Origin: Arthrobacter sp.
GTDB taxonomy: Bacteria; Actinomycetota; Actinomycetes; Actinomycetales; Micrococcaceae
Length of the DNA stretch: 64,000 nucleotides
Direction: 5' to 3'
NCBI RefSeq assembly: GCF_031179985.1
Contig: NZ_JAPSHJ010000013.1
Location: 12,710-76,709 of the forward strand
Position numbers and translations under genes: made by a program. Below the pieces are notes generated by a model. It ran no database searches. It was not told the origin of the DNA and saw only the letters and a list, made by a program, of their open reading frames with translations. Shown here piece after piece: positions 3,428 to 64,000 of the stretch. Each line of letters opens with the position of its first letter. Position 1 is the stretch's first letter.

Positions 3428-3437
3428 TTTGTGCTCC

Positions 3438-5218: not shown

Positions 5219-5400
5219 ATGTGCCAGCCTACAGAATGGGGGGCCGGTTGCGGACTTCCACCCCGCCAGGAACGTGTTTTACGCCTCATTCGTCCGCTCC
5301 CTGCGCGTAAATGGAGGATATTCGGAGTAGTCTCCCAGCCTGCCGGGCTAAAATGGACTCTCGGCCCAGTGGCCTAATGTTCATTTAGCCATGGAGGGTC

Positions 5401-5997: not shown

Positions 5998-6055
5998 GTA
6001 CGTCCGTCCACTGACCTGCTCTGAGAGTTGAGCGTCTGTGAGTTGAGCTGCAGTG

Positions 6056-6760: not shown

Positions 6761-7079
6761 GGTTCCCATCTTGCCACGAGCCCTCACGGCGCAGAACCGG
6801 GACCTCGGGCGTTGAATCGAGACCTGCTGTGGGTTTGATCGGAAGGCTTTCCGGGCCTGCCCGAACTGCTGGGAACCTGCTGTGTGATCTCCGACACGTT
6901 CAACGTTACTAACGTTGGTGGTGTTACTTGACCCAGACCGCAACTTTCCCCGGGATTTGGGTAAATGCCAAGAAAAAAAGTCAGCATGCTGTCAAAATCG
7001 TTGCTGCTACGCGGCCTTAACGGAAAATTCCCGGGCGTGGCGCGGCACCGAATCGCGCCTTGTGTTGATTATTATCCCG

Positions 7080-37573: not shown

Positions 37574-37746
37574 CTGCCGCAGTAGCCGGGTTACCGGAAA
37601 CCCGGGCCGGTATGAAAGCGTGTCCAGTAGGATGATCTTGATGCCGCGACCGGACTGCAGCTCCGGATCGCATGCCGCATCATAGGCCAGCACGAAGCAC
37701 ACTGAACGCGCGATCCACTGAGCAATCTAGCAAGGAGACTCTGTAC

Positions 37747-47679: not shown

Positions 47680-50373
47680 ATGATTCATTCAGACGCCGCC
47701 ACTCTCCCCGGCCTCAGACGCCCACAGGTTTTGCAGGGCGAGCACGTCCCCAACGGCATGTCGGCGTACTGCAGAAAGCCCTTGGTGGATGAGGTTCTGG
47801 CGGCTCTGGCGCAGGGCCAGAACCTCGGCGTGGTCTTGGTGGGGACCTACGGGACAGGAAAGACCTATCTGGCGCGGCAGGCGCTCGATCGACTCGACGG
47901 GCAGGCCTTCGTTGTTCAAATCCGGGGGAGTTCCGCCGCTGATGCCATGCCATACGGCGCCCTGAGTTCGTTGTTGTGCGAACTGGATGAAGACCTGGTC
48001 ACCAGCCCATTGGCCGTACTCAGGGGAATAACGCAACTTCTGCGGCGCAGGGCGGACGGAAAGAGCATCCTCGTGTTTGTGGACAACGTCCAGGACCTCG
48101 ATGAACTTGCCGCAGTGGTCCTCACCCAGCTGGCGGCCAACGGAACGGTGCAGCTCGTCGTCACCTGCCAGGATCTGCCCAAGGCTCCACGTGGGATCGT
48201 GGGGCTGTGGAAGGACGGATTGTTGCACCGCGTGGATGTACGCCCCTTCAGCCAGCCGGACGTAGCGCAGTGGCTGGAAGCAACGCTTGGCGGACCCGTA
48301 TCATTGGCCTGCAGCGAGGTGCTGTACAACGCCAGCGGCGGGAACCCACGCTTTCTGGAAGCCATCCTGCACGAGCAGACCCGGGCGGCCACTCTGGTGC
48401 ATTCCGACGGCGTCTGGGTGCTGACGGGCAAGCCGCTTGCTTACAGCCGGACCATGACAGATACGGTCTTCACTGCCCTCAGTTCCATTTCCGCTGCTGA
48501 GAAGCACGTGACCGAAGTGCTGGCCTTGGCGGGAACCCTGACCCTTGACCATCTCATCAGCGTCAGCGATCCGGCGGCCATTGATGCCCTGCAGCAACGC
48601 GGGTACCTCACCGTAGTGCACGGCGATCCATCGTCGGTTTCCCTCACGAATGCGCTGATGGCCAACGTTGTCCGCAAAGAAGTACCGGCAGGCCGGAGCA
48701 GGGAACTCCTCGCCGGCGTCGTTGCTTGTGCAGATTTCTCCGTTATGCCCCCGTCAGCAGAATTATCCCTGGCCGCATGGGCAGCTGATTGCGGAATGCA
48801 ACTGGAGGCAGATAAGGCTCTCTACGCTGCAGGGCTGGCCAACCGTGCAGGAAACCCGGCCTTGGCCCTCCGCCTCATCGACTTGCTCCATGACCCGGCA
48901 GGGCGGGTTGCAGCTGTGGCGGAAAAGATCAGGGCACTCATCGGGTTGGGTGAGCTGGTGAAGGCGAGGAACCTCGCTTTGGACCCTGCCGCCGTCGCCG
49001 AAGCGCCCTTGAGGCGCTGGGTTGACATCATGCTGCTCCGAAGCGCATTGCTGTGCTCCGATGACAGACCGGAGGCAGATCCGCGTGCGCCGCTGGACGA
49101 AGTCCATGCCCGGCTAAAAGCGGAGGAATCGGGTTCAGACCCTGATGCCCACGGTCTGTTGGATATGCGCGAGGAGCTTTCATTGGCCCAGGCGCAGGTT
49201 GCCGTCCATGATGGCCGGTACCGGGAGGCTCTTTCAGGCCTGACGCGTCTCGTTGATGGTGCGCCAAGCACTGAAGGCCGCACGCTGGCCGCGAGCTTGC
49301 TTGCCGCCCTGTTGGCTCTGACCGGGCGCGGGGCCGAGGCATCATCGCTGATGAGGTCGGTACGGGCGTCGCGCTCAGAAATCGACGTACCGCTGCCTAT
49401 GCACACCTTGCCTGCCTCTGCCCTGTTGGGGTTGCTGCCGGCAGCGTCTACAGCCCACGACGCCGCGGCAGTTGCAGCCGGGTCCAACATCTTCCTGGCG
49501 GCACACGGCGCCACCTCACGGGAGCTTGGAACAGGTGTTCTGGACGCCTACTGCGGACGATCCGAACAGGCTCTGGAACGATTGATCCCCGCCCTGAGCC
49601 AGCTGAAGCAACTGGATCCGGACAGCACGTCCGCATTGGGAGCAGCCTCCATTGCCTACGCGTACGCTTTGCTGGGCGAAAAAGACCTTGCCTTGGAATA
49701 CCTGCAAACGAGCCAGCGGGAGCAAAAACGGACCTCGAGATGGGTACTGAGCGTCTGCTCCTACTTCCAGCTGCTGACCTCCGCTGAACTCGCTTCGAAG
49801 GAAAAGGCAATCGTGCGCCTGTTCGGGCTCGCGGATGAAGCCCGCAGCAGGCACGCCACCGCCCTGGAGCTGATGTTCCTGAGCGCAGCCGTGCGGTTGG
49901 GCAGTAACGGCGGGACTGAGCGCCTGGTGGCGGTTGCGTCCAGCGTCCAGAGCACTCTTGGCCGGCAATGCGAAGCGTATGGAACAGGAGTTATCAAGCG
50001 GAACAGTTCCGCGCTCCTTGAGGTAGCCAGGGAGGCCGCTACCGCAGGAAATGTGGTCTTCGCCAGGGACGCTGCTCGGGCAGCCCTCAAAATTGCGAAC
50101 GATGCTTCTGACAGGAACGCTATCAGGGCCGCGCAGCAGCTGATCCGGGGAGGTGCGCCGGCAGCAGCTGGAGGCGGACACGCGTCCCTGGGGGAGGGGC
50201 AACTGACGGCCCGCGAACATGAGGTGGCAGCCATGGCCGCCGCCGGTGTGAGCAACAAAGACATCGCAGCCAAAATGCATATTTCGGTTCGTACCGTTGA
50301 GGGCCATCTTTACCAGATTTACGGCAAGCTGCAGGTGACCTCACGGGCCGAACTCAGGGAATCATTTGCATAG
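47680..50373 (+). CDS. Large NTPase-LuxR regulator, copy 3
   Basis: GTYGTGKT, VFVDNVQDLD, SGGNP, LTAREHEVA..SNKDIA..SVRTVEGHLYQIYGKL. Confidence 0.93.
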   Translation: MIHSDAATLPGLRRPQVLQGEHVPNGMSAYCRKPLVDEVLAALAQGQNLGVVLVGTYGTGKTYLARQALDRLDGQAFVVQIRGSSAADAMPYGALSSLLCELDEDLVTSPLAVLRGITQLLRRRADGKSILVFVDNVQDLDELAAVVLTQLAANGTVQLVVTCQDLPKAPRGIVGLWKDGLLHRVDVRPFSQPDVAQWLEATLGGPVSLACSEVLYNASGGNPRFLEAILHEQTRAATLVHSDGVWVLTGKPLAYSRTMTDTVFTALSSISAAEKHVTEVLALAGTLTLDHLISVSDPAAIDALQQRGYLTVVHGDPSSVSLTNALMANVVRKEVPAGRSRELLAGVVACADFSVMPPSAELSLAAWAADCGMQLEADKALYAAGLANRAGNPALALRLIDLLHDPAGRVAAVAEKIRALIGLGELVKARNLALDPAAVAEAPLRRWVDIMLLRSALLCSDDRPEADPRAPLDEVHARLKAEESGSDPDAHGLLDMREELSLAQAQVAVHDGRYREALSGLTRLVDGAPSTEGRTLAASLLAALLALTGRGAEASSLMRSVRASRSEIDVPLPMHTLPASALLGLLPAASTAHDAAAVAAGSNIFLAAHGATSRELGTGVLDAYCGRSEQALERLIPALSQLKQLDPDSTSALGAASIAYAYALLGEKDLALEYLQTSQREQKRTSRWVLSVCSYFQLLTSAELASKEKAIVRLFGLADEARSRHATALELMFLSAAVRLGSNGGTERLVAVASSVQSTLGRQCEAYGTGVIKRNSSALLEVAREAATAGNVVFARDAARAALKIANDASDRNAIRAAQQLIRGGAPAAAGGGHASLGEGQLTAREHEVAAMAAAGVSNKDIAAKMHISVRTVEGHLYQIYGKLQVTSRAELRESFA

Positions 50374-51718
50374 CTGACGGAGTCCGACGGAGACTGAGGG
50401 CATCCATGATGGCGGCAACGGCTGCATCCACGCCGACTTCAGCCGTGTTGATGACCAGATCCGCATCAGCCGGCACTTCATAGGGCGAGCTGATTCCGGT
50501 AAATTCCGGAATCTGGCCAGCCCGGGCCCGTGCATAGAGTCCTTTCCTGTCCCGCGCTTCGCACACACTCAGCGGAGTGGACACATGGACCAGGATGAAG
50601 GAGCCCGCCGGAGCCATCGCCCGCACTTCCCGTCGGGTGGAATCAAACGGCGCAATGGGCGCACACACGGCGTCGCCCCCGGAAGCAGCAATCAGCGAAG
50701 CGACCCAGCCGATACGGCGGATGTTCGTTTCCCTGTCCTCCTTTGAGAAGCCGAGCCCCGACGAAAGCAACCGACGGACATCGTCGCCATCGAGTAGTGT
50801 CACAGTCCTCTCACCTGCCGCCTGCAGCCGTTGCGCGAGGGCTCGGGCGATGGTCGATTTTCCCGATCCTGAGAGCCCGGTGAAGAAGACGACGCTACCC
50901 GTAGTGCTGCCTGCCCCCGTGTTGCCCGATACCGGGTGGGCGGGGAGTGACTGGCTTGGGATTGACTGGTTTGGCATTGCCTGGCTTGGACGATGGCCGA
51001 AGCGCGCATGGTCGATGCCGGCCTGTGGCTCATCCGGGACTGTGAAGTCCAGAAGTACATTGGCGCCAAGGTTTCGGAAGACGAGCTCCTGGATCAGCTC
51101 GTCCTCCCGATTGCCCGAACGGGCCGGCGACCGGAGCACCAACAGCCTGGAACTGGAACCGGGAACTTCAGCGGCGCATTGCTCAAGGACAGTCATCAAC
51201 TCCAGCGCTGTATACCGCCCGTGCTGCTGCGGACCGGTAACAGCCACCAGGCAGAGGTCTGCGTTGCGGCTTGCGGCGACGGAAACTGCGCGGGCCATCT
51301 GGGCTGCCAGCGGGGGCTTGGAGAAGGCGGACACAACGAACTTCCGGCCAGCAGCGGAAGCCAGTGGTTCTGTTATGCGCAAGTGTCTGAGAGGCGGATG
51401 CTCTGCTGCCTTAAGCGGGCTCAAGGCCCCTGCGAGGTAGATTCCCGTCCCCGGAGCTGACTCGAAGCCGGAAACTGTCAGGAGGGCCAGGGGGGTGCCG
51501 TCCGGATCGCATAGCAGCAGCGCAGATTCCCGTACGGCGCGTTCGCCCACCGAACGGGGCAGCAACAAGGTCACCGCGGTGGGCCAACGGACCGGAACAC
51601 TGGAGGGCAGGCAGTATCCGTGGGCGGGAGCGTACAAGCCACCCAGAAGGAGCTCAAGCTCATCCAAGGCACCGTCCGAAAGTACGTGCCACGGAAGGGC
51701 GCCCGCATGGGGGGTCAT
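50354..51718 (-). CDS. cysC: Adenylyl-sulfate kinase with an N-terminal degenerate Sat-type ATP-sulfurylase region
   Basis: C-terminal FFTGLSGSGKST, LLDGDDVR, GFSKEDRETNIRRIG, CEARDRKGLY, FTGISSPYEVP; N-terminal LDELELLLGG.YAP..CDPDGTPLALL PUA-like segment. Confidence 0.9.
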   Translation of the reverse strand: MTPHAGALPWHVLSDGALDELELLLGGLYAPAHGYCLPSSVPVRWPTAVTLLLPRSVGERAVRESALLLCDPDGTPLALLTVSGFESAPGTGIYLAGALSPLKAAEHPPLRHLRITEPLASAAGRKFVVSAFSKPPLAAQMARAVSVAASRNADLCLVAVTGPQQHGRYTALELMTVLEQCAAEVPGSSSRLLVLRSPARSGNREDELIQELVFRNLGANVLLDFTVPDEPQAGIDHARFGHRPSQAMPNQSIPSQSLPAHPVSGNTGAGSTTGSVVFFTGLSGSGKSTIARALAQRLQAAGERTVTLLDGDDVRRLLSSGLGFSKEDRETNIRRIGWVASLIAASGGDAVCAPIAPFDSTRREVRAMAPAGSFILVHVSTPLSVCEARDRKGLYARARAGQIPEFTGISSPYEVPADADLVINTAEVGVDAAVAAIMDALSLRRTPSAMQMIP

Positions 51719-52689
51719 GGCTGCCTCTCCATCGAGTGGAGGGTGTGAGTTGCCGATGGTGCTGCGCTGCGGCGTTGGCGCATCTCGCTCGTGGCCAGGG
51801 CGGGAAATCCTTTCGAACGCCGAATGGCCATCCAGACGAACGGCGCCACCAGGACTGCTCCTGCCAGTAATATGGCTGTGGGGAGCGTGTCCACTCCCAG
51901 CATTTTCAGGCCGGAGGCAAACAGGACCACTGCAAGCGCCCTGCGAATGAATCCGCCGTTAAGTCGGCTCGAGAGTTGTGCACCCAAAAAGACGCCCGGC
52001 ACGCTTCCGAGGATCAGGGGAAGCGTCAGTTCGAGGCTGAGCTCACCGAAAAGGGAATGACTGACGGCGGCGGCGGCCACCAGGGGGACAGCCTGTACAA
52101 GGTCCGTTCCTACCAGCTGACCGGCTTTCAGCCCCGGATAAATCATCATCAGCCCGATGATAATGAGTGAACCGGAACCCACTGACGTCATCCCGACCAC
52201 CAGACCGCCGAACACGCCCAGGACTATGGTTACCAGGGGGCGGGCGGATATCAAGGGACGTGCGTGCGGAAGACCGGTGCCCTGTCCGCTCCGGCTTTTA
52301 GCCCGCTCCTGGAGCCTCAGGTACGCCCGGACTGCCAGGAGGCCAGCGGCAAGCAGCAGGGCCGCTCCCAGAGCTGTTTTAACTGTCGTCTGAGCGGCAT
52401 CTCCTGGTCCCAGCCATTTCAGGATCAACACACCGCTGAAGGCTGCCGGGACAGAGCCAATTATCAGCCACTTCACGAGCTCAAGGTTGACGGTGCCGCG
52501 GCGGAGGTGGACTGCCGATCCAACAGGTTTCATGACAGCGCTCGCCACCAGATCACTGGATACCGCAGCCAGGGGCGGAACCCCAAAAACCAGCACGAGT
52601 ACAGGAGTCATCAGCGCGCCACCACCCATGCCGGTAAGACCGACCACTATTCCCACGCCGAAGGCGGCGAACACCAGCATCATGTCCAT
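51715..52689 (-). CDS. TauE/SafE-family (sulfite/sulfate) permease
   Basis: VGLTGMGGGALMTPVLV, AVSSDL, GMTSVGSGSL, LVGTDL.QAVPL, GSVPGV.LGA; start uncertain. Confidence 0.92.
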   Translation of the reverse strand: MDMMLVFAAFGVGIVVGLTGMGGGALMTPVLVLVFGVPPLAAVSSDLVASAVMKPVGSAVHLRRGTVNLELVKWLIIGSVPAAFSGVLILKWLGPGDAAQTTVKTALGAALLLAAGLLAVRAYLRLQERAKSRSGQGTGLPHARPLISARPLVTIVLGVFGGLVVGMTSVGSGSLIIIGLMMIYPGLKAGQLVGTDLVQAVPLVAAAAVSHSLFGELSLELTLPLILGSVPGVFLGAQLSSRLNGGFIRRALAVVLFASGLKMLGVDTLPTAILLAGAVLVAPFVWMAIRRSKGFPALATSEMRQRRSAAPSATHTLHSMERQP

Positions 52690-53115
52690 AAGAGCAGATT
52701 TTGTCACTGCAGGGACCCGCCGGAAATGCGTAGGGGCGGTAGGGAAAGGCAGTACTTTCGGCGGGGGAACAAGTAGTGTCTGCAGCGCTTTCCACAACCC
52801 GGGCGGCGCCGGGCAGACCCGCTCACAGCGCTTCGAAACACTAAATCAGAAGCTCGGCAGAACCAACAGGTAGTTCCCGGATCCACTGTGCCGGCAGACA
52901 GGTAATAGCGGCCCCCGAGTGCGTAAGCAGCCCCCCAAAGACGAGTATGGGCTACCCATGTGCGCCAACGCCGGCCCGCCTACGCTTTTGGTATCAAGTC
53001 ATCCACGCACCGGGTCCGAAGCAGGTCTCACAATGCGCACCAGTAACCCTTTTTCCCCTTTCCTTCCGGTCACTCCCGAAATCGCCCCGCACAGCAATCT
53101 GCGGGTCCCCAGGAC

Positions 53116-53210: not shown

Positions 53211-54758
53211 ATGAGTCCATTGGACGAATCCGCTTTCATGGGCCCGGGCCTGAAACTGGGCCCACACCCGCACAGCTACCCGGAACGTGGCAGTTCACGC
53301 CTCGAGCAATCGAGCCAGCAGACCAAAACCACAGGCCTCAGATGGGCCGGCCGTTACCAGCGGATTCTGTTCCTGTCGGATGCGCTGGTGCTGGCCGTTG
53401 TTGCTGCTGCCGCCCAAGTGGGCAGATTTGGCTTTGACGACAGAGACGTTACGGTCGGATTTTTCGAAGTCGCCTACACCTACCTCTCCATCGGGATCGC
53501 AGCCGCCTGGATGGTGGTGCTTGGTATTTACCGCACACGTGATCCCCGGGTAGTGGGGGTTGGCGCCGAAGAGTACAAGCGCGTCATCAGCGCCACCGTC
53601 ACCCTGTTGGGGCTTGTGGCAATTCTTTGTGCAGTCCTCAAAATTGACGTGGCCAGAGGCTACTTCGCGCTCGCCTTCCCGTTAGGGATCGTGGGGTTGA
53701 TCTCCTCGCGCTGGATTCTGCGCCAGTGGCTCACCAAGCAACGGACATTCGGGCATTATTTGTCGCGCGTCATCGTCCTGGGCCGTGGAAAGGACGTCCG
53801 CTACGTCATCAACCAGATCCAGAAAAAATCAGGCGCTGCATATGAAGTGGTGGGCGCAGCGTTGCCACACGCGGAGGAAAGGGAATTCCTCATTACCGGA
53901 TCAGGTCCGGTTCCTGTGGTGGCCACCGTGGGCACAGTCGTGGAGGCGGTTGAGCGCCTTGAGGCGGACGCCGTGATTGTGGCAGGACCGGTCAAGGGCG
54001 GCAGCAAGTACGTTCAACGGCTGGGTTGGAAGCTGGAGGAATCCGCGACGGAACTGGTGCTGGCCACCGGGTTGACGAACGTGGCCGGCCCCAGAATCCA
54101 TTCCCGCCCGGTTGAGGGACTTCCGCTGATGCATGTGGAGCTTCCACGCTACTCAGGAGCGAAGCACGTCCTCAAGAGGCTCCTGGACATTGTTCTCTCC
54201 GCTATGGCCTTGATCGTCCTGCTTCCTGTTTTCGCGGTCCTCGCATTCCTGATCAAGCGGGACAGTGATGGCCCTGTGATCTTCCGTCAGGAAAGGATTG
54301 GCCAGGGCGGCAAGAAGTTCCTGATGTACAAGTTCCGGTCAATGGTGCAGACGGCCGAGGATGACCTTGCCGGACTTCTGGACCAGAACGAGGGCTCCGG
54401 TGTCCTGTTTAAGATGCGTCATGACCCACGCGTCACGGATGTCGGACGCTGGATGCGCAAATACTCGCTCGACGAACTGCCCCAATTCTGGAATGTGCTG
54501 CTGGGGGACATGAGCCTGGTAGGCCCGCGGCCGCCTCTGCAGCGGGAAGTGGATGGCTATAAGGCCCGTGTCCACAGGAGGCTTTACATCAAGCCAGGCC
54601 TGACAGGAATGTGGCAGATCAACGGACGGTCCGAGCTCAACTGGCAGGACAGCATCCGACTGGACCTCTACTACGTCGAAAACTGGTCACTTGCCGGCGA
54701 CATCATCATCCTGTGGCGGACCGTCAAAATGCTCATCAACCCACAGGGAGCGTACTGA
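53211..54758 (+). CDS. Priming polyprenyl-phosphate sugar-1-phosphate transferase (WcaJ/CpsE/WbaP family)
   Basis: N-terminal TMs, CoA_binding_3-like region, [76 protein letters not shown]. Confidence 0.96.
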
Positions 54759-55678
54759 TGAAGGGCATTCCGATCGATGTGACGCGGCTGACTTTGCTCG
54801 GGGAAATCGCAGCCGTTGCCGGGTCCAGGGCCGATGAAGAGCTGGCGCGCGAGCTGGCCACCGTCGCTGGATCGATGTTGCTCGCCTTCCGGGAATCCGC
54901 GGATGGGGCCGGCTTAGCTGCAGATGAACTGCGTGCTCAGGGTGACGCACGCGCCCAGAAACTGCTGAGCAAGGCCCTGCTTCAGCACCGGCCAGATGAT
55001 GCCGTCCTCTCTGAAGAGGCACCTGACGATCCGGCCCGCCTGTCCGCCCACCGGGTGTGGATCATCGACCCGTTGGACGGAACCAGGGAATTCGCTGAGG
55101 GTCGAAGCGATTGGGCTGTGCATGTTGCGCTGCACTCCCACGGGAGGTTGACCGCTGGAGCGGTTGCCGTTCCCGCATTGGGTTACGTCACTGGCCGCAA
55201 GGACGGGCTATGGGTACGGAAACCCGGCCGGCAGCTTCGAATCGCTGTTTCCCGGTCCCGGCCTCCCCAACTGGCGGAAGCCGTGGCTGGACGACTTGGC
55301 GCAAAACTCGAGCCGATGGGGTCAGCCGGGTACAAAACCTGCGCCGTTATCAGCGGGGAGGTAGATGCCTACCTGCATTCGGGCGGCCAGTTTGAGTGGG
55401 ATTCAGCGGCACCGGTTTTCGCTGCGCGCCAGGCTGGATTGCACGCCAGCCGGGTGGACGGTTCGGAGTTGCTGTACAACCAGAAGTCGCCGAGCCTGCC
55501 TGATCTGCTGATTTGCCACCCAGATATTCGCGACATACTGCTGGTGGCCATTGCGGACGTTCTGAAAGATCCGTCCGGCAGAGGTTCTTTGGCCCAGCGC
55601 GCATCAGGAGAGCGTTCATCAGGACAGCGTCCGTCCGGACAGTCCCGCTATGGGAACGCACAGGACAGGAGAGGCTGA
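54758..55678 (+). CDS. cysQ: 3'(2'),5'-bisphosphate nucleotidase (PAP phosphatase)
   Basis: VLSEE, VWIIDPLDGTREF, DWAVHVAL, VSRSR, MGSAG.K, GQFEWDSAAP; TGATG overlap. Confidence 0.93.
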   Translation: MKGIPIDVTRLTLLGEIAAVAGSRADEELARELATVAGSMLLAFRESADGAGLAADELRAQGDARAQKLLSKALLQHRPDDAVLSEEAPDDPARLSAHRVWIIDPLDGTREFAEGRSDWAVHVALHSHGRLTAGAVAVPALGYVTGRKDGLWVRKPGRQLRIAVSRSRPPQLAEAVAGRLGAKLEPMGSAGYKTCAVISGEVDAYLHSGGQFEWDSAAPVFAARQAGLHASRVDGSELLYNQKSPSLPDLLICHPDIRDILLVAIADVLKDPSGRGSLAQRASGERSSGQRPSGQSRYGNAQDRRG

Positions 55679-56595
55679 TGACTCCCAAAGATCGGCCCAA
55701 GCGCAGGCTGACGCAGCTCGAAGTGCTGGAGTCGGAGGCGATCTTCATCATCCGCGAAGTGGTCGCCGAGACGGACAATCCGGCGATGCTGTTCTCCGGA
55801 GGCAAGGACTCCATGGTGATGCTCCATCTCGCCGTGAAGGCCTTCGCCCCAGGATCCGTGCCGTTTTCCCTCCTTCACGTGGATACCGGGCACAACTTTC
55901 CGGAAGTTCTGGAGTTCAGGGACCGCTGTGTAGGTAAGTACTTGCTGAACCTCGTGGTGGCCTCTGTCCAGGACGCATTGGACCGCGGCATAGTTCACCA
56001 AGAACCGAACGGCTCGCGCAACAGAATCCAAACGCCTGTGCTGCTCGAAACTGCGCAGAAGAACGGGTTCACCGCATTGCTGGGCGGCGCACGCCGGGAT
56101 GAAGAAAAGGCCCGTGCGAAGGAACGTGTATTTTCGTTCCGGGACGAGTTTGGGCAGTGGGATCCGAAAAACCAGCGCCCCGAGCTGTGGAGCATCTTCA
56201 ACGCCGAGGTCCACCAAGGTGAAAGCATCAGGGTGTTTCCGCTCTCCAACTGGACCGAACTGGACGTCTGGGACTACATCCGCCAAGAGGGCATTGATCT
56301 TCCGTCGATCTACTACGCGCACGAGCGGGAAGTCTTCGAACGCGGGGGCATGCTGTTTGCGGCCAACGAATTCTGCAGGCCTAAAAACGACGAGCCCACG
56401 TCAGTGCAAAAAGTCAGGTACCGGACAGTCGGCGATGCGACCCTGACGGCTGCTGTCCGCTCCGATGCCGACACCGTGGACAAGGTGGTAGCTGAGATAG
56501 CAACCACCCGGATCACGGAGCGCGGTGCGACCCGGGGAGATGACCGCGTCGGTGCAGCGGCCATGGAGGACCGGAAGAAAGAAGGCTACTTCTAA
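55678..56595 (+). CDS. cysD: Sulfate adenylyltransferase subunit 2
   Basis: LESEAIFIIREV, FSGGKDS, HVDTGHNF, GGARRDEEKARAKER, PELW, RVFPLSNWTE, RYRTVGD, MEDRKKEGYF. Confidence 0.98.
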   Translation: MTPKDRPKRRLTQLEVLESEAIFIIREVVAETDNPAMLFSGGKDSMVMLHLAVKAFAPGSVPFSLLHVDTGHNFPEVLEFRDRCVGKYLLNLVVASVQDALDRGIVHQEPNGSRNRIQTPVLLETAQKNGFTALLGGARRDEEKARAKERVFSFRDEFGQWDPKNQRPELWSIFNAEVHQGESIRVFPLSNWTELDVWDYIRQEGIDLPSIYYAHEREVFERGGMLFAANEFCRPKNDEPTSVQKVRYRTVGDATLTAAVRSDADTVDKVVAEIATTRITERGATRGDDRVGAAAMEDRKKEGYF

Positions 56596-57842
56596 TGGAT
56601 CTCTTGAGATTTGCCACGGCGGGATCCGTAGATGACGGCAAGAGCACCTTGATCGGACGGTTGCTCTATGACTCGAAATCCATCTTCACGGATCAGCTTG
56701 AATCCATTGAGCGGACCAGCCGGGCCATGGGTTCGGACTACACGGAACTGGCGTTGCTCACTGACGGGTTAAGGGCAGAACGTGAGCAAGGGATAACCAT
56801 CGACGTCGCCTATAGATACTTTGCTACGGCTAAGCGGAAATTCATCGTGGCGGACACACCCGGACATATCCAGTACACACGGAACATGGTGACCGGGGCA
56901 TCCACCGCCGACATGGCTATTATGCTCGTCGATGCGCGGAAGGGGCTGCAGGAGCAAAGCCGGCGCCATGCATTCCTTGTCTCGCTGCTGAAAGTGCCGC
57001 ACCTGGTGCTTGCCATAAACAAGATGGATCTCGTTGCCTGGTCTCAGGACGTCTTTGAGGATATCCGGCATGACTTCGTGGAATTCGCCGCCAAGCTCGA
57101 TATTCCTGACCTGACGGTCATACCGCTTTCCGCCCTCACCGGTGACAACGTGGTGAGCCGCTCAGAGAATATGCCCTGGTACCAGGGAACGTCGCTGATG
57201 ACCCATCTGGAGAACGTTTACATAGCCAGTGACAGGAATTTGGTGGATGGCCGGTTCCCTGTCCAATACGTGATCCGGCCCCATTCAAACCGCTTCCCCG
57301 ATTACCGCGGGTACGCGGGGAAGATCGCCGGCGGAGTCATGCGCATCGGCGATGAGGTGGTGGTCCTGCCCAGCGGGCTTCCGTCGCGCATCGCCTCGAT
57401 CGAGTCCGCAAGCGGACCTGTCAACGAAGCGTTCGCTCCAATGTCCGTCGTCGTGCGGCTCGAGGACGACATTGATATCTCACGCGGGGACATGATTTGC
57501 AGACCGCACAACCAGCCAAAAGTCTCGCAGGATATTGACGCGATGATCTGTTGGATGAGCGAGGAGCCCTTGCGCCCGGGCCAGAAGCTGGTGGTCAAGC
57601 ACACCACACGGCGGGCGCGGGCACTCGTCAAGGACGTGCAGTACGAACTGGACATCAACACCCTGCACCGCAACGAACAGGCGGAGGAGCTCAAGCTCAA
57701 CTCCATCGGGAGGGTTCGGCTGCGCACCACCATTCCGCTTCTTGCGGATGAGTACCACCGAAACAGGGAAACAGGCGGCTTCATCCTCATTGATGAACAC
57801 TCCCTGCGAACAGTAGGCGCGGGGATGATCCTGTCCGTCTGA
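56595..57842 (+). CDS. cysN: Sulfate adenylyltransferase subunit 1 (GTPase), no fused CysC
   Basis: TAGSVDDGKSTLIGRLL, DGLRAEREQGITIDVAYRYF, DTPGH.QYTRNMVTGAS, NKMD, RFPVQYV, TGGFILID..TVGAGM. Confidence 0.97.
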   Translation: MDLLRFATAGSVDDGKSTLIGRLLYDSKSIFTDQLESIERTSRAMGSDYTELALLTDGLRAEREQGITIDVAYRYFATAKRKFIVADTPGHIQYTRNMVTGASTADMAIMLVDARKGLQEQSRRHAFLVSLLKVPHLVLAINKMDLVAWSQDVFEDIRHDFVEFAAKLDIPDLTVIPLSALTGDNVVSRSENMPWYQGTSLMTHLENVYIASDRNLVDGRFPVQYVIRPHSNRFPDYRGYAGKIAGGVMRIGDEVVVLPSGLPSRIASIESASGPVNEAFAPMSVVVRLEDDIDISRGDMICRPHNQPKVSQDIDAMICWMSEEPLRPGQKLVVKHTTRRARALVKDVQYELDINTLHRNEQAEELKLNSIGRVRLRTTIPLLADEYHRNRETGGFILIDEHSLRTVGAGMILSV

Positions 57843-57895: not shown

Positions 57896-58399
57896 ATGAG
57901 AACAGCCAGGTATGGTGTCCGCAATCATCCCGTTGCGCCCGGAACCGAGAGGATTCTGCTGGTTGGATCCAGCGGCGGCCATCTCGCGCAATTGCTGGCC
58001 CTTGAACCCTGGTGGGCGCACCAATCGAGGGCCTGGGTAACCTTCAAAACGCCCGACGCCGAGTTCGGCCTGCGGAATGAGCAAGACGTCACTTGGGCAT
58101 ACTCCCCAACCACCCGGAACATCCCGAACCTGCTGCGGAACTCAAAACTGGCGTGGTCATTGATGCGGCAGTTCCGTCCAACCGTGGTGATCTCGACTGG
58201 AGCAGGAAGCGCCCTGCCCTTTTTTGCCCTTGCGAAGATGATGTCCACCACAACTGTGTACATAGAAGTTTATGACCGGGTAGACAGCCCCACGCTCACC
58301 GGAAGACTGTGCCGGCCATTTACCGACCTGATGTTGGTCCAGTGGCGTGACCAGCTGGGACTCTACCGTGACGCCCATGTACTGGGGAGACTGCTGTGA
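57896..58399 (+). CDS. Alg14/PssD/CpsF-family glycosyltransferase N-half (acceptor-binding)
   Basis: LVGSSGGHLAQL, WVTF..PD, PTTRNIPNL, VVISTGAG.ALPFF, VYIEV.DR..PTLTGRL, VQW. Confidence 0.93.
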   Translation: MRTARYGVRNHPVAPGTERILLVGSSGGHLAQLLALEPWWAHQSRAWVTFKTPDAEFGLRNEQDVTWAYSPTTRNIPNLLRNSKLAWSLMRQFRPTVVISTGAGSALPFFALAKMMSTTTVYIEVYDRVDSPTLTGRLCRPFTDLMLVQWRDQLGLYRDAHVLGRLL

Positions 58400-59691
58400 A
58401 CGAGGCTCCAGTACATGGCCAGCCGGACAATGCCTCCACTCCGAGAAGCATCAGTGTTCTTGTGGGTACTGACCATCACGAGTTTTCCCGGTTGGTCGAC
58501 TGGGCTGATGGTTGGGCAACCGAACATCCGCAGGACAAAGTCACGGTGCAGTTCGGCCACAGCCGGGCACCCGCTTCTGCCGAGGGGCACAGCTTCATGT
58601 CTCCTGCCGCGCTCGCCGAACTCATGGCCACGAGCGACATCGTTGTTGCGCATGGCGGACCTGCCACTATCTCCGGGGCGAGAGCTGCGGGGCACGTACC
58701 GCTGGTGCTGCCAAGGGATCCGGCCCTGGGAGAGCATGTTGACGATCATCAGCAGCGGTTCGCGAGCTGGTCCGCCCAGAGATCGTTGGTCACCAAGGTG
58801 GTATCGGTGCCGGAGCTGCAGGAACGGGTCTCGGCCTTGGCAGGGGAAGGTTCAGGGACCAAGAGCGGAAACCTCGATGGAGCGCGGCAGGGCGACGACG
58901 CGGCAAGCCACCTTCCGCTGCTCCTGGCGAAGGCGAGGACTGCAACCAACCGAGCCACTCCAGGCGCCCCCGTGGTTTTGTACGTCTCCGGCGCAAGTGC
59001 GGCGACGTCGTCGTACCTTTCCGCCCTCAGCCGTGCAGAAGGCGCCGTGATGCTGGGGGATATCGGGCAGCTATGGGAGCAGGGCATAGTCAAAAACGCC
59101 GGCTGCGCCTGCGGGGCGCCTTTTTCCTCCTGTCAGTTCTGGCTTCGAGTGGGGAAGGAGGCCTTTGGAGGCTGGGATGATGTGGACGTCCGCTCCATCA
59201 AACGGCTGGGGGAGTCCGTCAGGTCTGCTGGAAAACTGATGCTGGGGGTCCTGCCCTTTGAACCTCCGTTGCTCCGCCGACAGCTCGCTGAGCACTCGTC
59301 GTACTACCTTGCTCTGTTCCGGGCAGTGCAGGACATCACCGGCGGGAAGGTGCTGGTGTGTTGCGGTGCGGACCCTGTTCTGGCTTTCGCCTTGAGCCAC
59401 AACCGTGAAATTGATGTGCGGATTCTGTATCTGGCTGGAAGGCCGGGCCGGCCAGTGATCAGCGACGACGTCCCCGGTTCGTTAGCCGCGAGATGGCTGT
59501 CCTCGAGGATGGGGGCACAATTCCTCAGGATGCGTCACGTTCCCCGCGCCGTCATCGGGCGCAAGCGTTATCTGAACGACCCCTTGAAAGCACTGCACTC
59601 GGTGGGCCGAAAACTCGAGCTCCCCGATTCCTGGCCCGTTCAAGGCGCTCCCCAGGAGTTCCATCCCCTTCTGCGAGAGGACCTGCCGTGA
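58396..59691 (+). CDS. Fusion: Alg13/PssE/CpsG GT28 C-half plus a degenerate sulfotransferase-like domain
   Basis: VLVGTDHHEFSRL..VQFG..VVAHGGPATI..PR....GEHVDDHQ (PssE); from aa ~193 VVLYVSG..GDIGQLWEQG..CACGAPFSSCQFW..AFGGW..YYLALFRAVQDITGGKVLV. Confidence 0.8.
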   Translation: MNEAPVHGQPDNASTPRSISVLVGTDHHEFSRLVDWADGWATEHPQDKVTVQFGHSRAPASAEGHSFMSPAALAELMATSDIVVAHGGPATISGARAAGHVPLVLPRDPALGEHVDDHQQRFASWSAQRSLVTKVVSVPELQERVSALAGEGSGTKSGNLDGARQGDDAASHLPLLLAKARTATNRATPGAPVVLYVSGASAATSSYLSALSRAEGAVMLGDIGQLWEQGIVKNAGCACGAPFSSCQFWLRVGKEAFGGWDDVDVRSIKRLGESVRSAGKLMLGVLPFEPPLLRRQLAEHSSYYLALFRAVQDITGGKVLVCCGADPVLAFALSHNREIDVRILYLAGRPGRPVISDDVPGSLAARWLSSRMGAQFLRMRHVPRAVIGRKRYLNDPLKALHSVGRKLELPDSWPVQGAPQEFHPLLREDLP

Positions 59692-60596
59692 GCACGGTGT
59701 CGGTGATCATAGCCACGCGGGACCGCCCCGAGATGCTCAGGGAGGCGATCGCGGCGGTCGCTGGCCAGGCCTTCGACGGCGAGATTGAAATCATCGTGGT
59801 TTACGATCAGTCAGCCCCGGACACCTCACTCCAAGCATCAGAGGGCACCAGGCGTGTCAGGGTGATCAGCAACTCCCGCACCCCCGGCCTGGCAGGGGCC
59901 CGCAACAGCGGAATCCTTGCTGGCACCGGAGACTATGTGGCCTTTTGCGACGACGACGACTACTGGAAGCCCGGAAAGCTCGCGGCCCAGGTCAAACGGA
60001 TGGAGACCGATTCCGGCGTCGAGTTTGTCACGTGTGGAATTTCAGTACAGTACGACGGCGTCACTCACGACCGCCCGCTGGGCAGGGACATCGTGACCTT
60101 CGATGAACTGCTGCGGGACCGGCACACGGAGCTGCACCCCTCAACCTTTTTGATGCGGCGTTCAGCGGCAATCACTGGTTTTGGACTTGTGGACGAAGAG
60201 GTTCCCGGCGGATTCGGCGAAGACTACGAGTTTCTGCTCCGGGCCGCAAAATCCCACTCGATTGCCCATGTTCGTGAGGTTCTGGCGGTGGTTCGCTGGG
60301 GTGGACAGTCATTCTTCTTCAGGCGCTGGCAGACCATGTCCGACGGGCTGTCCTGCCTGCTCGACAGATTCCCGGAATTTGAAACTACACCTGCCGGCTC
60401 TGCCAGGATCCGGGGGCAGATTGCCTTCGCGAACGCCGCTTTGAAGAACCGGCGGATTGCCCTCCTGTGGGCAGTGTCGGCCTTCAGGCGCAACCCCCTT
60501 GAACTGAGAGCGCCGCTGGCAATCGCCGTCGCCGCCGGGGTGCTGTCCCCGGACAGGGTGATGGTTGAGCTGCACAAGCGGGGGCGGGGAATCTAA
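59688..60596 (+). CDS. GT2-family glycosyltransferase
   Basis: VSVIIATRDR, VVYDQS, GLAGARNSG, AFCDDDDYW, EDYEFLLR; GTGA overlap. Confidence 0.93.
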   Translation: MSTVSVIIATRDRPEMLREAIAAVAGQAFDGEIEIIVVYDQSAPDTSLQASEGTRRVRVISNSRTPGLAGARNSGILAGTGDYVAFCDDDDYWKPGKLAAQVKRMETDSGVEFVTCGISVQYDGVTHDRPLGRDIVTFDELLRDRHTELHPSTFLMRRSAAITGFGLVDEEVPGGFGEDYEFLLRAAKSHSIAHVREVLAVVRWGGQSFFFRRWQTMSDGLSCLLDRFPEFETTPAGSARIRGQIAFANAALKNRRIALLWAVSAFRRNPLELRAPLAIAVAAGVLSPDRVMVELHKRGRGI

Positions 60597-60699: not shown

Positions 60700-61779
60700 T
60701 CAGTATCCAAACACCCGTTCCACCACACGTATCGAGGCCTGTCCATCGTCCAGCGGGCAGAAACGTGAGACGAAGGTCCGGTACCGCTCTGCATTGGCGC
60801 GGTGGCCCTCCTCCAGATTGCTCAAGGCGGCGCCCAGGGATTCGGTGTCCGTCACGATGGTTCCTGGCGCCCACTCCTCGTAGTCGTAGTACAACCCACG
60901 AACATTGTCCCGGTAGCGGGCCAGGTCGTAGGGGAAGAGAACTATTGGCTTTCCGGTGACTGCAAAGTCAAAAATGGCTGAGGAGTAGTCCGAGACCATC
61001 ACATCTGCCGCCAAATAAAGTTCGGCGATATCCGGGTAATTGCTGACGTCGAGAGTAAAGCCGTCGCGGCCAGGCGGCGCGCTCTTCACCACGCTGTGCA
61101 TGCGGTTGAGGATTACTGTTCCGGCAGGTGTTGTCTTCTGCAGCAGATCCAGGTCCAAGACCCCGGGATCCGTGAATTTCCCGTCTGGATGGGGAGAATC
61201 ATCGCGCCATGTGGGGGCGTTCAGGACCACCAGGGCGGAAGGATCCAGCCCAAGCTCCTTGCGTACTTCTTCCCTGATCCTTGGCGCTTCGGCCGACTTA
61301 AGGATGTCGTTACGAGGGTAGCCGGTTTCCAGCAACTCCCCATCAAATCGGAACGCACCCCTGAGAATGTCGGAGCTGCTGGGAGCTGGGGAGAGCAGGT
61401 AGTCCCATTTTTTGATGTCCCGTTCAAGCCGCTTCTGATGGGCGGCAGCGCCTGGGTAAGTCCTGAACTCCTCGTCGAAACCAATGGTCTTGAACGGGGT
61501 ACCGTGCCAGGTTTGGAGATACCTGACCCTTGGACCTTTGACCAGGTGTTTGCTGACGACATCATTGCTGATGAGGTAGTGGCAGCTGTACAGCCTCGCA
61601 AAGTACTCCGGGGTGTGCCGACGCACCCTGGCTACGCCGTCAGGCAAGCGGGTTGATTCGTCCGCCACCCAAACCAGTTTCAGATCGGGGCGGAGCTTTT
61701 GCAGGGCCTCGGAAATGGCCCGGGGGCTGTCAGCGTATTTTCCACGCCAGCTTTCAAAGAGAACGGTTTTCTGTTTCAT
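60700..61779 (-). CDS. TagF/TagB-family CDP-polyol:glycopolymer phosphotransferase
   Basis: FESWRG.YADSP, QTWHGTPFK.IG.D, GYPRND, APTWR, RMH, SDYSSAIFDF, CP.DDG.AS; both catalytic-type His motifs present. Confidence 0.92.
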   Translation of the reverse strand: MKQKTVLFESWRGKYADSPRAISEALQKLRPDLKLVWVADESTRLPDGVARVRRHTPEYFARLYSCHYLISNDVVSKHLVKGPRVRYLQTWHGTPFKTIGFDEEFRTYPGAAAHQKRLERDIKKWDYLLSPAPSSSDILRGAFRFDGELLETGYPRNDILKSAEAPRIREEVRKELGLDPSALVVLNAPTWRDDSPHPDGKFTDPGVLDLDLLQKTTPAGTVILNRMHSVVKSAPPGRDGFTLDVSNYPDIAELYLAADVMVSDYSSAIFDFAVTGKPIVLFPYDLARYRDNVRGLYYDYEEWAPGTIVTDTESLGAALSNLEEGHRANAERYRTFVSRFCPLDDGQASIRVVERVFGY

Positions 61780-63407
61780 ATCTCGTTCCTTTCAGGGGAA
61801 GGGGAGTCTTTTCTCGAGAGAATGGTTTTTAGTGTCGGCAGGCGCAGCTTCCCCCGCCAGAGCCACAGGAGAAACGCATACGCCGCACAGCCGGCTGCCA
61901 GGACGCCGAAGAACTCCCCCAGGTGCGTCCGCTGCAGCAGACTCAGGGTCAGCAGCGGGATTCCGAGGCAAGCCACATTGGCCACCGCTACCAGTGCCGA
62001 CCGCCAGCCGAATGGGTCCATGGCGAGGAGCTTCTTGACCCTCTCGAGAGTCAGTAAGTTCTTGAGTAAAACGGCGATGCCCCATGCAACCGCAGCACCG
62101 ACAATTCCCCACAGCGGAATGAGGATCAGGCAAAGACCGATATCCGCCGCCAAAGTAGTCAATGCAATCCAAAGACTGGTCCGGCTGCCGCCTGCCATCA
62201 ACAACAAGGTGTCCAATGGCCCGGCAGCAACGCCTGCAAGCATGGCGATACTCATCAGAATCACCACCGCTCCGGCACTTTCCACGTTGTAGCCTGCGCC
62301 GAAGATCATCAGGTAGAAGCCGCCCGCTGCCCCTGTGACCATGTAGAGCGGCCAGGCTACGGCCATGCTCCACGCTGTCGAGATCCGGAAGACGTCAGCC
62401 GCATCCGCATGGCGCCCTTTTGCAAGGAGTTGGCTGAACCGGGGTTGCAGGACCTGTTGAATTGCTTGGGTGGCGAACTGGCCCAGGGCCACGAACCGTG
62501 TTGCCGCTGTGTAGAGCGCCGCATCCTGCACAGACAGCAGGGCGGCGATCAGGATGATGTCGGAACGCTGAAGCAGGATCTGGCAAAGACGCGCAATTCC
62601 CCGCGGCCAGGTGAAACCCCAGAATTCCCGACGGACCATCGCGCGGTCATTCAGCGGCGCCGTGTGGTGATCAATACCGCGGCGGCGAAGCATTCTGCGG
62701 AAGATCAGGACCGATACCACGCCTGCAATGGCGTACGGGGCAACCCATCCGGCGGAGAGCAGGAGCACTCCGCCGCCAGCCAGGGCAGCCAGCCAAACGC
62801 TCAGCGGCTGCAGCATAGTGCGCAGGAACTTGTCGATCAGGACGGTGCTGCGTACCGTTCCGAAAGAGCGGGCACCTGCCAACGAAAAATCACCCCAGGC
62901 GGCCACCGGCAGGAGCAAGGCAAACATCAGCAGGACCAGGGAGCCTTGGGGAGTGTCCAGGCCGATCAAAGGTGCCAGTTGGCCGGCCAGAAGGGCAGTT
63001 CCCAGCGCCAGCACCAGGCTGGTCAGCAGGACCGGACGGAGGGCGACTGACAGACATTGGGAGATATCAGCAGTGCGGCCAGTCGCCTCGTACCGGAGCA
63101 TAAAGCGGGCCAGCCCGCTTTCAGTACCCAGGGAGGCGGCACCCAGCAATATCAGAAACGCAGATGATGCTGCGAAGAACATACCGGCAGTGGCCTGGTC
63201 ATAGAGTTGGGTGACCACCACGATGAGACCGAAGCCGAAAACCGCGGAAACGGCTGCCCCGAGGAGGTTGAACACTCCACTGCGTGCAATATGCGATAGC
63301 TGGGCGTCGACCGCTTCAGTGTTCGCCGCTTCACTGCCCACGAGCACTGGCACTGCTGGAGGCGACTGGAACTTTGGCAGCGGCGGGTCCCTCTGCTCCA
63401 TTTCCAT
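61776..63407 (-). CDS. Wzx-type (MOP superfamily) oligosaccharide flippase
   Basis: IARSGVFNLLGA, about 12-14 TMs, RSDIILIAAL..ALYTAA.R, LLLMAG, NL.LIP.WGIVGAA. Confidence 0.9.
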   Translation of the reverse strand: MEMEQRDPPLPKFQSPPAVPVLVGSEAANTEAVDAQLSHIARSGVFNLLGAAVSAVFGFGLIVVVTQLYDQATAGMFFAASSAFLILLGAASLGTESGLARFMLRYEATGRTADISQCLSVALRPVLLTSLVLALGTALLAGQLAPLIGLDTPQGSLVLLMFALLLPVAAWGDFSLAGARSFGTVRSTVLIDKFLRTMLQPLSVWLAALAGGGVLLLSAGWVAPYAIAGVVSVLIFRRMLRRRGIDHHTAPLNDRAMVRREFWGFTWPRGIARLCQILLQRSDIILIAALLSVQDAALYTAATRFVALGQFATQAIQQVLQPRFSQLLAKGRHADAADVFRISTAWSMAVAWPLYMVTGAAGGFYLMIFGAGYNVESAGAVVILMSIAMLAGVAAGPLDTLLLMAGGSRTSLWIALTTLAADIGLCLILIPLWGIVGAAVAWGIAVLLKNLLTLERVKKLLAMDPFGWRSALVAVANVACLGIPLLTLSLLQRTHLGEFFGVLAAGCAAYAFLLWLWRGKLRLPTLKTILSRKDSPSPERNEI

Positions 63408-63999
63408 TCTTCTTGCTGCCCGCCATCAGATTGCCGGAAGTCTTGGCGGGACGCGTCCTGGCCGGTTCCAAAACCACGGCTCCAAGCAGGTTCACGGATA
63501 GCTCCCGGCAGACTTCAACAGAACTGTTAAGGTCCGTGACCTTGGTAGAGCCATAGGCGATCTCAACAATGACGGATTTGAAAGTACTCGCCAACAGCTG
63601 GGCATTGGGGCTGAGCATAGGACCAGTGACGACCAGCACAACGTCTGCACGGTGCGCCAGCGAGCCAATCACCCCGATGAGCCGGGGGGTGACCCGGTGC
63701 TGTGCAGAGCCTGCTTCCCGGGAACCGCTGCCCAGGACCTGAAGCGTGGGTGACAGGCTCACCAATGTTTCGTCAACGGCGATATTCTCGTCCAGGAGGT
63801 CAGCCAGGCCTGGATAATCTGCCCGGACCAAGGGTGGCATGACCAGGCGGCCCGTCGTGTCTACAACGAGTGTCTTGATCCCTGCCTCTGCAAGCGACCA
63901 GGCGATTGAGACTGCAGAGAGCGGCTGCGCTGCGTCTTTACCGGCAGTACTCAACAGGATGACATTGCTCCGGTGAAGCCTGGTGAAGTCCAGGACGTT
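63331..63999 (-). CDS. Wzc/CpsD-like (BY-kinase fold) C-terminal domain, degenerate; gene begins beyond the window
   Basis: Frame open to the window edge (NVLDFTRLHRSNVILLSTAGK..); SIAWSLAEAGIKTLVVD, PGLADLL, L.VL.SG, DVVLV..GP, VIVEI..G.T, NLLGAVV. Confidence 0.75.
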   Translation of the reverse strand, partial: NVLDFTRLHRSNVILLSTAGKDAAQPLSAVSIAWSLAEAGIKTLVVDTTGRLVMPPLVRADYPGLADLLDENIAVDETLVSLSPTLQVLGSGSREAGSAQHRVTPRLIGVIGSLAHRADVVLVVTGPMLSPNAQLLASTFKSVIVEIAYGSTKVTDLNSSVEVCRELSVNLLGAVVLEPARTRPAKTSGNLMAGSKKNGNGAEGPAAAKVPVASSSASARGQ

Positions 64000-64000
64000 G

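Follow-up and report, generated by a model that had tools for sequence, protein, structure and literature searches.

A stand-alone TagF-family transferase encoded with a Wzx-type flippase in a sulfation locus of Arthrobacter sp.

In a 64,000-nt stretch of the Arthrobacter sp. genome (assembly GCF_031179985.1, contig NZ_JAPSHJ010000013.1, positions 12,710 to 76,709; hereafter the window), a gene for a stand-alone TagF-family polyol-phosphate transferase, P0001, overlaps the gene of a Wzx-type oligosaccharide flippase, P0002. The pair lies in a conserved polysaccharide locus that also encodes a sulfotransferase, the supply of 3′-phosphoadenosine 5′-phosphosulfate (PAPS) and a TagD-like cytidylyltransferase. 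On the basis of sequence comparison and gene context, we consider it probable that P0001 is a TagF/TarF-type glycerophosphotransferase, which would use cytidine diphosphate (CDP)-glycerol and act on the lipid-linked unit of a sulfated Wzx/Wzy polymer.

The TagF-family enzyme and its junction with the flippase gene

The gene pair comprises the following features, in window coordinates.

60700..61779, minus strand: stand-alone TagF-family (Glyphos_transf) polyol-phosphate transferase, 359 aa, P0001 (Pfam, alignment to 3L7I, AF2 model)
61776..63407, minus strand: MOP-superfamily (Wzx-type) oligosaccharide flippase, 543 aa as the longest open reading frame (ORF), P0002 (NCBIfam, Atlas structure, orthologs)
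61776..61779, minus strand: ATGA overlap joining the end of wzx to the start of the tagF-like gene (read from the sequence)
61788..61793, minus strand: Shine-Dalgarno-like GAAAGG within the wzx 3′ end, 8 nt upstream of the tagF-like ATG (consensus level only)

P0001 matches the Pfam family Glyphos_transf (PF04464) with an E-value of 6.8e-96 and 321.9 bits (cut-off 22.1), the match spanning residues 2-357 of the protein and positions 12-366/367 of the profile, and it is the sole PF04464 gene in this genome, which is 95.8% complete. The protein aligns to residues 351-709 of Staphylococcus epidermidis TagF (3L7I; E 2e-72), with 35-36% identity over the full catalytic domain. His92 of the WHG motif corresponds to TagF H444, an assignment confirmed by the H444N entry 3L7J, which deviates in precisely this column; the RMH histidine, His228, pairs with the one at chain position 584 of TagF. 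Neither histidine varies in 34 homologs, and the donor-site motifs GYPRND, APTWRDD and DYSS are common to P0001 and TagF. The AF2 model of P0001, for which the alignment of these homologs was used (pLDDT 90.4, pTM 0.90), has the GT-B-like two-Rossmann fold and superimposes on 3L7K with TMq 0.90, a root-mean-square deviation of 2.8 Å and E 1e-32; the next matches of the model are Cps3D and TarL, with TMq 0.75 each. These results bear out the earlier note on this DNA, which had read the gene as a stand-alone 359-aa TagF-type domain with WHG and RMH motifs, and characterize P0001 as a functional-looking polyol-phosphate transferase whose activity is predicted.

Among characterized members of the family, P0001 scores high with the glycerol-phosphate enzymes (256 bits for the TarF model, 247 bits for TagF and 114 bits for Cps3D), whereas the ribitol-phosphate polymerase TarL reaches just 86-87 bits. 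All scores against the NCBIfam equivalog models are below the respective cut-offs, namely 255.7 against 550 for TarF (NF041712), 40.2 against 500 for TarB/TagB (NF041711) and 86.7 against 1000 for TarL (NF041713). Judged by these scores, P0001 belongs to the TagF/TagB/TarF family yet is orthologous to no named wall teichoic acid enzyme.

On the minus strand P0002 precedes P0001. The flippase gene ends in GAG ATA TGA and the transferase gene begins with ATG AAA CAG, so that a 4-nt ATGA overlap joins the stop codon of one to the start codon of the other, as had been noted earlier. Because an in-frame stop codon is located 15 nt upstream of this ATG, the overlapping ATG is the sole possible start of P0001. 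A GAAAGG or GAAGGAG sequence is found at the same place before the tagF-like gene in four related genomes (G089, G031, G020 and G108). The overlap is the arrangement expected of translational coupling between wzx and the tagF-like gene, and we read it as such. A promoter and terminator scan around both genes gave no signal above shuffled expectation.

The sequence profiles of P0002 are weak: it reaches 34.8 bits with NCBIfam WZX_like (cut-off 300) and 21 bits with SpoVB, and it has no Pfam match at E<=0.01, including Polysacc_synt (PF01943/PF13440), and no PDB match. Its Atlas model (pTM 0.83) aligns over ~500 residues to Polysacc_synt/oligosaccharide-flippase clusters with a TM score of 0.85-0.90, in a comparison of a predicted model with predicted models, and 92-98% of the members of the matching clusters carry PF01943. 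We accept the earlier identification as a flippase on these structural grounds and regard P0002 as a predicted MOP/Wzx-type flippase whose sequence profiles stay below their cut-off. The orthologs of P0002, which adjoin the TagF gene in four genomes, are 49-69% identical to it. The first ~18-40 codons of the P0002 ORF are unmatched in these orthologs (tblastn alignments start at residues 25-36) and the Atlas record begins at residue 19; translation probably begins at a later codon than the first ATG, maybe ~18 codons on.

Conservation and content of the locus

We compared the locus with related genomes and metagenomic contigs. The closest named relatives of P0001 are from annotated Arthrobacter sp. 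H14-L1 (76% identity) and Paenarthrobacter sp. Z7-10 (75%). A stand-alone ortholog is carried by 4/120 genomes of the same family (76, 75, 65 and 56% identity), and the search of four same-genus genomes yielded none at E<=1e-40; the other matches in the family genomes are multidomain TagF-like proteins of ~1200 aa. In class-wide samples of 400 genomes, where scoring of 3-5 candidates per genome makes the counts lower bounds, there was no stand-alone ortholog above 50% identity, and the TagD-like fusion described below occurred in one further genome only. A contig scan with P0001 alone returned only four distant relatives. The metagenome scan with P0001 retrieved mostly ~1200-aa multidomain TagF-like genes, and stand-alone proteins (<=450 aa) were encoded in just 4/53 of the metagenomic TagF-family loci nearest P0001; two contigs, L053 (60% identity) and L054 (50%), were the only ones of this locus type. 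The sequencing runs listed as containing the present stretch are metagenomes of rhizosphere and soil, which may be its source, and include no RNA run.

By tblastn with 21 locus proteins, a block of ~27 kb keeps its synteny in G089, G031 and G020 and occurs in rearranged form in G108 (all Micrococcaceae). L053 and L054 keep the order Wzc-like, Wzx, TagF together with the sulfotransferase, and L054 additionally keeps the PAPS genes and a kinase-like gene. This gene order is preserved in seven loci; wzx and the tagF-like gene are adjacent in all seven, down to 50% identity, with either an overlap or a spacer of <=12 nt at the junction. Because order and junction are kept in seven loci and few genomes carry them, the pair is a stable component of a sulfated-polysaccharide locus that is itself accessory and sporadic in its distribution. 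The earlier placement of the pair inside a sulfation locus agrees with this comparison: the two genes are predicted to be co-transcribed within a conserved PAPS/sulfotransferase polysaccharide locus.

The locus extends on both sides of the pair. The contig continues for 14.8 kb past the window end, and this stretch was analyzed as L008. The genes surrounding the pair are as follows.

50354..52797, minus strand: APS (adenosine 5′-phosphosulfate) kinase (CysC) and TauE-family anion exporter/permease, divergent (Pfam APS_kinase E 6e-57, TauE E 1.8e-42)
53211..54758, plus strand: initiating polyprenyl-phosphate hexose-1-phosphate transferase, Bac_transf (Pfam E 8e-70; TIGR03025 427 bits, above cut-off)
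54611..57842, plus strand: CysQ-like phosphatase of 3′-phosphoadenosine 5′-phosphate (PAP), CysD and CysN, for PAPS supply and PAP removal (Pfam Inositol_P, PAPS_reduct, GTP_EFTU)
57896..60596, plus strand: Alg14-like and Alg13-like split glycosyltransferase, then GT2 (Pfam; NCBIfam PssE 54 bits)
63331..64000 and past the window end (L008:541-2178), minus strand: Wzc-like gene, 545 aa, 3′ part in the window, at the head of the Wzy-like/Wzc-like/wzx/tagF-like operon side (weak NCBIfam BY-kinase)
L008:8614-10068 (G000:C83:84113-85567), plus strand: TagD-like cytidylyltransferase-Gfo/Idh/MocA fusion, 484 aa, P0123 (TIGR01518, 1COZ)
L008:10119-11423, plus strand: APH/choline-kinase-like ORF, 434 aa, P0245 (HGDxxxxN and DWE motifs, Atlas structure)

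The Alg14/Alg13-type and GT2 genes converge on the tagF-like gene. L008 contains, in order, the rest of the Wzc-like gene, a 736-aa Wzy-like membrane protein, a 1058-aa PKD-domain protein, a 222-aa ORF, the 484-aa fusion P0123, the 434-aa P0245, the sulfotransferase, SufS and NifU. The sulfotransferase looks intact, with a 5′-phosphosulfate-binding-like GTQRSGTT and a 3′-phosphate-binding-like RNPVNRAYS motif, and SufS and NifU at the edge look like flanking housekeeping genes. The Wzc-like protein has weak BY-kinase domain matches (37 bits with TIGR01007, cut-off 108) and no Pfam match, and may be a pseudokinase. No ABC exporter, of the TagGH type or any other, was found among the annotated genes of the block. 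Where classical wall teichoic acid linkage would have a TagA-type gene and an ABC exporter, this locus has Bac_transf, Wzx, Wzy-like and Wzc-like genes instead; the only WecG/TagA-like gene of the genome sits on another contig, C61.

The PKD-repeat protein (1058 aa, L008:4780-7956, plus strand) is a conserved member of the locus, and its gene is duplicated or expanded in G089 and G031 (L045:4207-5841 and L043:10556-12322, both minus strand). These two genomes also have CBM_4_9 proteins, and G031 has an Acyl_transf_3 gene between the fusion and the kinase. The PKD, CBM_4_9 and acyltransferase genes may be glycan-binding or glycan-modifying accessories; the CBM proteins and the acyltransferase located between fusion and kinase in the relatives were considered and showed no relation to glycerol phosphate.

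The TagD-like donor synthase

The earlier note had found no CDP-glycerol or CDP-ribitol synthase (TagD/TarI) in the window and had proposed to search the genome for one. Within the window this holds, the sole IspD-like match being a GlmU-type gene at 37672-39237, but the statement is misleading: the genome search was positive, and the TagD-like gene, P0123, belongs to the same locus just beyond. It is located ~7.4 kb past the window end on the same contig, 9.6 kb from the tagF-like gene. P0123 is the best TIGR01518 match and the only strong TagD-like match in the genome. Its residues 38-164 cover all of Bacillus subtilis TagD (1COZ, E 5e-31) and also align to S. aureus TarD. The motifs HxGH, RTxGxSST and GSDW are invariant in 121 members of the fusion family, as is the basic pair R79/K81 of P0123, which corresponds to K44/K46 of TagD.

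The C-terminal half of P0123 has diverged from its family. In its Gfo/Idh/MocA domain the catalytic Lys, Glu and Tyr are replaced by Arg, Gln and Thr, and the GxGRI dinucleotide motif reads GTGSA, against a family norm of Lys (of EKP) in 116/121, Glu in 115/121 and Tyr in 113/121 members. The clade of this locus displays a range of triad states: KEY in Paenarthrobacter sp. DKR-5 (G020), KET in Z7-10 (G031) and in P0127 and P0129 (each ~71-72% identical to P0123), KQT in one sequence, RQT in this genome and PAA in one other sequence. Between this clade and the rest of the family, identity of the Gfo half is 45-50%, compared with 57-70% among four sampled members of the rest, and the cytidylyltransferase half is ~74% identical to other family members. 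We read this pattern as loss of the oxidoreductase function and retention of the cytidylyltransferase function in the clade of P0123. A decayed triad together with invariant cytidylyltransferase motifs suggests that the transferase half alone suffices, as expected if the substrate were the common metabolite sn-glycerol 3-phosphate.

TagD-like and TagF-like genes are present one to one. In the four genomes that carry the fusion in the locus, there is no other strong match to the TagD-like half of P0123. G108 is without the fusion in its locus and encodes elsewhere a stand-alone TagD, ~4.6 kb from a 1172-aa TagF-like gene. This single contrast fits the possibility that the transferase half of the fusion supplies the donor of P0001. 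Our literature search found no description of a TagD-Gfo/Idh/MocA fusion.

Two further elements of the genome bear on the donor. Directly 3′ of the fusion gene and next to the sulfotransferase gene lies P0245, which has no Pfam match at E<=0.001 and a sub-threshold APH match (E 0.0015); the structural matches of its Atlas model are APH-family kinases, including kinase-methyltransferase (WbdD-like) architectures. Its gene stays next to the sulfotransferase wherever the available sequence extends far enough, in six loci (five genomes and L054, whereas L053 ends too early), and the protein may act as a kinase on a small alcohol or on the glycan. The second element is a 9-kb contig, C64 (L052), on which an IspD-SDR fusion resembling the CDP-ribitol synthase Bcs1 (5532-7025, minus strand) adjoins a LicD-like/methyltransferase fusion (3982-5535, minus strand), together with a metallophosphoesterase and a GT4. 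By its gene content, C64 looks like a second, independent polyol-phosphate decoration module.

The predicted polymer and its relation to known systems

We propose the following pathway. The Bac_transf enzyme would start an undecaprenyl-diphosphate-linked repeat unit, which would be extended by the Alg14/Alg13-type and GT2 glycosyltransferases and sulfated by the sulfotransferase with PAPS from CysDN and CysC, with CysQ clearing PAP. The TagD-like half of P0123 would make CDP-glycerol as the donor, and P0001, at the cytoplasmic face of the membrane, would place one or very few glycerol phosphates onto the unit via a phosphodiester bond before flipping. The co-translated Wzx-type flippase would then move the finished unit outward, where the Wzy-like protein with its Wzc-like partner would polymerize the units. 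The expected product is a capsule, wall polysaccharide or exopolysaccharide bearing sulfate and glycerol phosphate.

Several observations weigh against this proposal. P0123 scores 105-108 bits with the TagD equivalog TIGR01518, below its cut-off of 165.4, and its fusion family, which is conserved across phyla under generic names only, is distinct, very conserved and apparently uncharacterized. The G020 locus retains the intact K/E/Y triad, so that the oxidoreductase may still matter there. In the same-genus genome G012 (L051, G012:C10 8170-10875), an intact KEY fusion is divergent from a LicD-family gene in another Wzy/Wzz/GT4 locus with no TagF-like gene, and the fusion family thus appears to serve both LicD-type and TagF-type transferases; the gene adjoining the fusion in G012 was compared with the kinase P0245 and is not homologous to it. 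CDP-ribitol is probably available too because of the IspD-SDR fusion on C64. Finally, the solved TagF is a polymerase, and single addition and oligomerization look alike in sequence.

An alternative donor, which we regard as rather unlikely, is another CDP-alcohol: CDP-2-glycerol, as made by pneumococcal Gtp1-3, CDP-ribitol from the C64 synthase, or a product proper to the fusion family, with the APH-like kinase possibly making the alcohol phosphate. It would account for a cytidylyltransferase kept across phyla at ~74% identity yet under the TagD cut-off, for the pairing of the fusion with LicD in G012, and for the retention in six loci of a kinase that here directly follows the fusion; the Bcs1-like synthase would provide one such donor. 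However, P0001 is much nearer to the glycerol-phosphate enzymes than to TarL, and the C64 module has a LicD-like transferase of its own, so CDP-ribitol is possible but less likely as the donor of P0001. Moreover, in G108 and L054 the kinase accompanies the sulfotransferase with no cytidylyltransferase in the stretch examined, G108 seems to use an ordinary stand-alone TagD, and the oxidoreductase half of P0123 is decaying. A related and unlikely reading is that the conserved set of kinase, TagD-like cytidylyltransferase (its Gfo/Idh/MocA half being live or not) and stand-alone TagF-like enzyme forms a dedicated pathway for a non-canonical CDP-alcohol phosphate (e.g. glycerol 2-phosphate), or that the kinase puts a phosphomonoester on the glycan as its third anionic group. 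If it were true, the product in these Micrococcaceae would be a sulfated phospho-polysaccharide with three modifications, of a kind not yet described, and the graded decay of the oxidoreductase would record a recent change in donor chemistry.

The place of the phosphate in the predicted CDP-glycerol-dependent product has to be considered as well. Since the TagF-family gene is predicted to be co-transcribed with wzx in a PAPS/sulfotransferase locus, a polymer with both sulfate and phosphodiester is a reasonable prediction, and to this extent the doubly anionic polymer put forward earlier stands; whether the polyol phosphate links or decorates the repeat units, which the same claim had included, reads alike in sequence. 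In-chain ribitol phosphate occurs in Wzy-dependent polymers such as pneumococcal teichoic acid and serogroup 6 capsules, TagF-family enzymes can make in-chain polyol phosphate that is extended by a glycosyltransferase, and the three sugar-adding activities of the locus could act before or after P0001. It is nevertheless quite unlikely, in our judgment, that the repeats are joined by phosphodiesters into a true teichoic-acid-like Wzy-type polymer resembling pneumococcal teichoic acid. No sequence feature requires in-chain phosphate, side-chain glycerol phosphate is commoner in the gct/wchX Wzy-dependent capsules (PMC1391919), and in the sulfated capsule of Cobetia the glycerol phosphate is a Man-6-P-Gro side group (PMC11766843). 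Decoration is also more economical than linkage because Wzy-like and Wzc-like genes are conserved in the operon. From this gene content, the product is most likely a decorated Wzx/Wzy polysaccharide rather than a teichoic acid hybrid.

We consider it highly improbable that P0001 makes a classical poly(glycerol phosphate) wall teichoic acid, as a processive polymerase or as a primase, with wzx as an unrelated neighbor. Its closest solved relative is indeed the polymerase TagF, and a TagA/WecG-like gene and three LCP genes are present in the genome, but the tight wzx junction recurs in all seven loci, the tagF-like gene travels with the sulfation locus and, being found in 4/120 family genomes and in none of the four same-genus genomes at the above threshold, is accessory and not a core wall function, the block lacks a TagGH-type exporter among its annotated genes, and relatives making classical polymers use the ~1200-aa multidomain TagF-like proteins.

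The earlier note had also suggested attachment of the polymer to peptidoglycan by an LCP ligase. The LCP gene at 1781-3709 (minus strand) is confirmed by its match to PF03816 (E 2e-22); the genome has three such genes, and this one sits beyond the syntenic block at a distance of 57 kb. No evidence ties it to the locus, and attachment of the polymer to peptidoglycan is a conjecture.

Sulfated bacterial polysaccharides are sought after as heparin-like or carrageenan-like materials. To our knowledge they are rare, and nearly all described clusters come from Gram-negative marine bacteria and cyanobacteria. The present analysis defines a compact, conserved actinobacterial locus that is expected to put sulfate and glycerol phosphate on a Wzx/Wzy polymer. 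Its cultured carriers include Arthrobacter sp. H14-L1, Paenarthrobacter sp. Z7-10 and Paenarthrobacter sp. DKR-5, and the predicted chemistry is therefore directly testable. The more interesting by-product is the widespread TagD-Gfo/Idh/MocA fusion family, whose oxidoreductase half is visibly decaying in this clade.

The wall teichoic acid enzymes are the nearest relatives of P0001 in structure. P0001 shares with TagF (3L7I-3L7M), TarF and TagB the fold, both catalytic histidines and the CDP-glycerol-site motifs; unlike TagF, it is without the ~350-residue N-terminal region, and unlike the enzymes of the TagO/TagA/TagGH pathway, it is encoded in a Wzx/Wzy locus and is probably not processive. 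Like Cps3D of Actinobacillus pleuropneumoniae (8QOY; E 8.6e-32, TMq 0.75) and the Bcs3-type enzymes, P0001 would be a TagF-like domain used for capsule synthesis, but those are ~1100-aa multidomain polymerases for ABC-transporter (group 2) capsules, whereas P0001 is a single 359-aa domain.

The closest precedents in gene order and in chemistry lie elsewhere. Glycerol 1- or 2-phosphate is a constituent of pneumococcal Wzy-dependent capsules, whose loci include gct or gtp1-3 together with the transferase gene wchX (PMC1391919), and in serogroup 23 (and 15) the order is wzx-wchX-gtp1-gtp2-gtp3 (PMC5581491). The present locus resembles these cps loci in its Wzy-dependent pathway, in the transferase gene right after wzx and in the donor pathway within the locus; it differs in its actinobacterial host, its full PAPS supply and sulfotransferase, and its TagD-like donor synthase fused to a decayed Gfo/Idh/MocA domain. 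WchX is presumably a PF04464 protein. The capsule of Cobetia marina KMM 1449, ->4)-a-L-Rhap2S-(1->3)-b-D-Manp6PGro-(1->, was solved chemically (PMC11766843). It carries sulfate and glycerol phosphate in every repeat and has PAPS/sulfotransferase genes in its cluster, as is predicted here from the genes alone; however, the organism is Gram-negative, export is by an ABC transporter, and the proposed transferase is an LtaS-type WcbQ using phosphatidylglycerol instead of a TagF-type enzyme using CDP-glycerol (PMC11766843). With these pneumococcal (PMC5581491; PMC1391919) and Cobetia (PMC11766843) precedents, the teichoic acid/Wzy hybrid cannot be upheld as a new arrangement: the predicted chemistry and the gene coupling are each already known, and the coupling of a TagF-type gene to wzx is ordinary. 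Our literature search returned no described locus joining sulfotransferase, CDP-glycerol and Wzx. What is new is modest: the predicted chemistry and the gene coupling come together here in a Wzx/Wzy locus of an actinobacterium, with a TagF-type enzyme and a decaying fusion partner.

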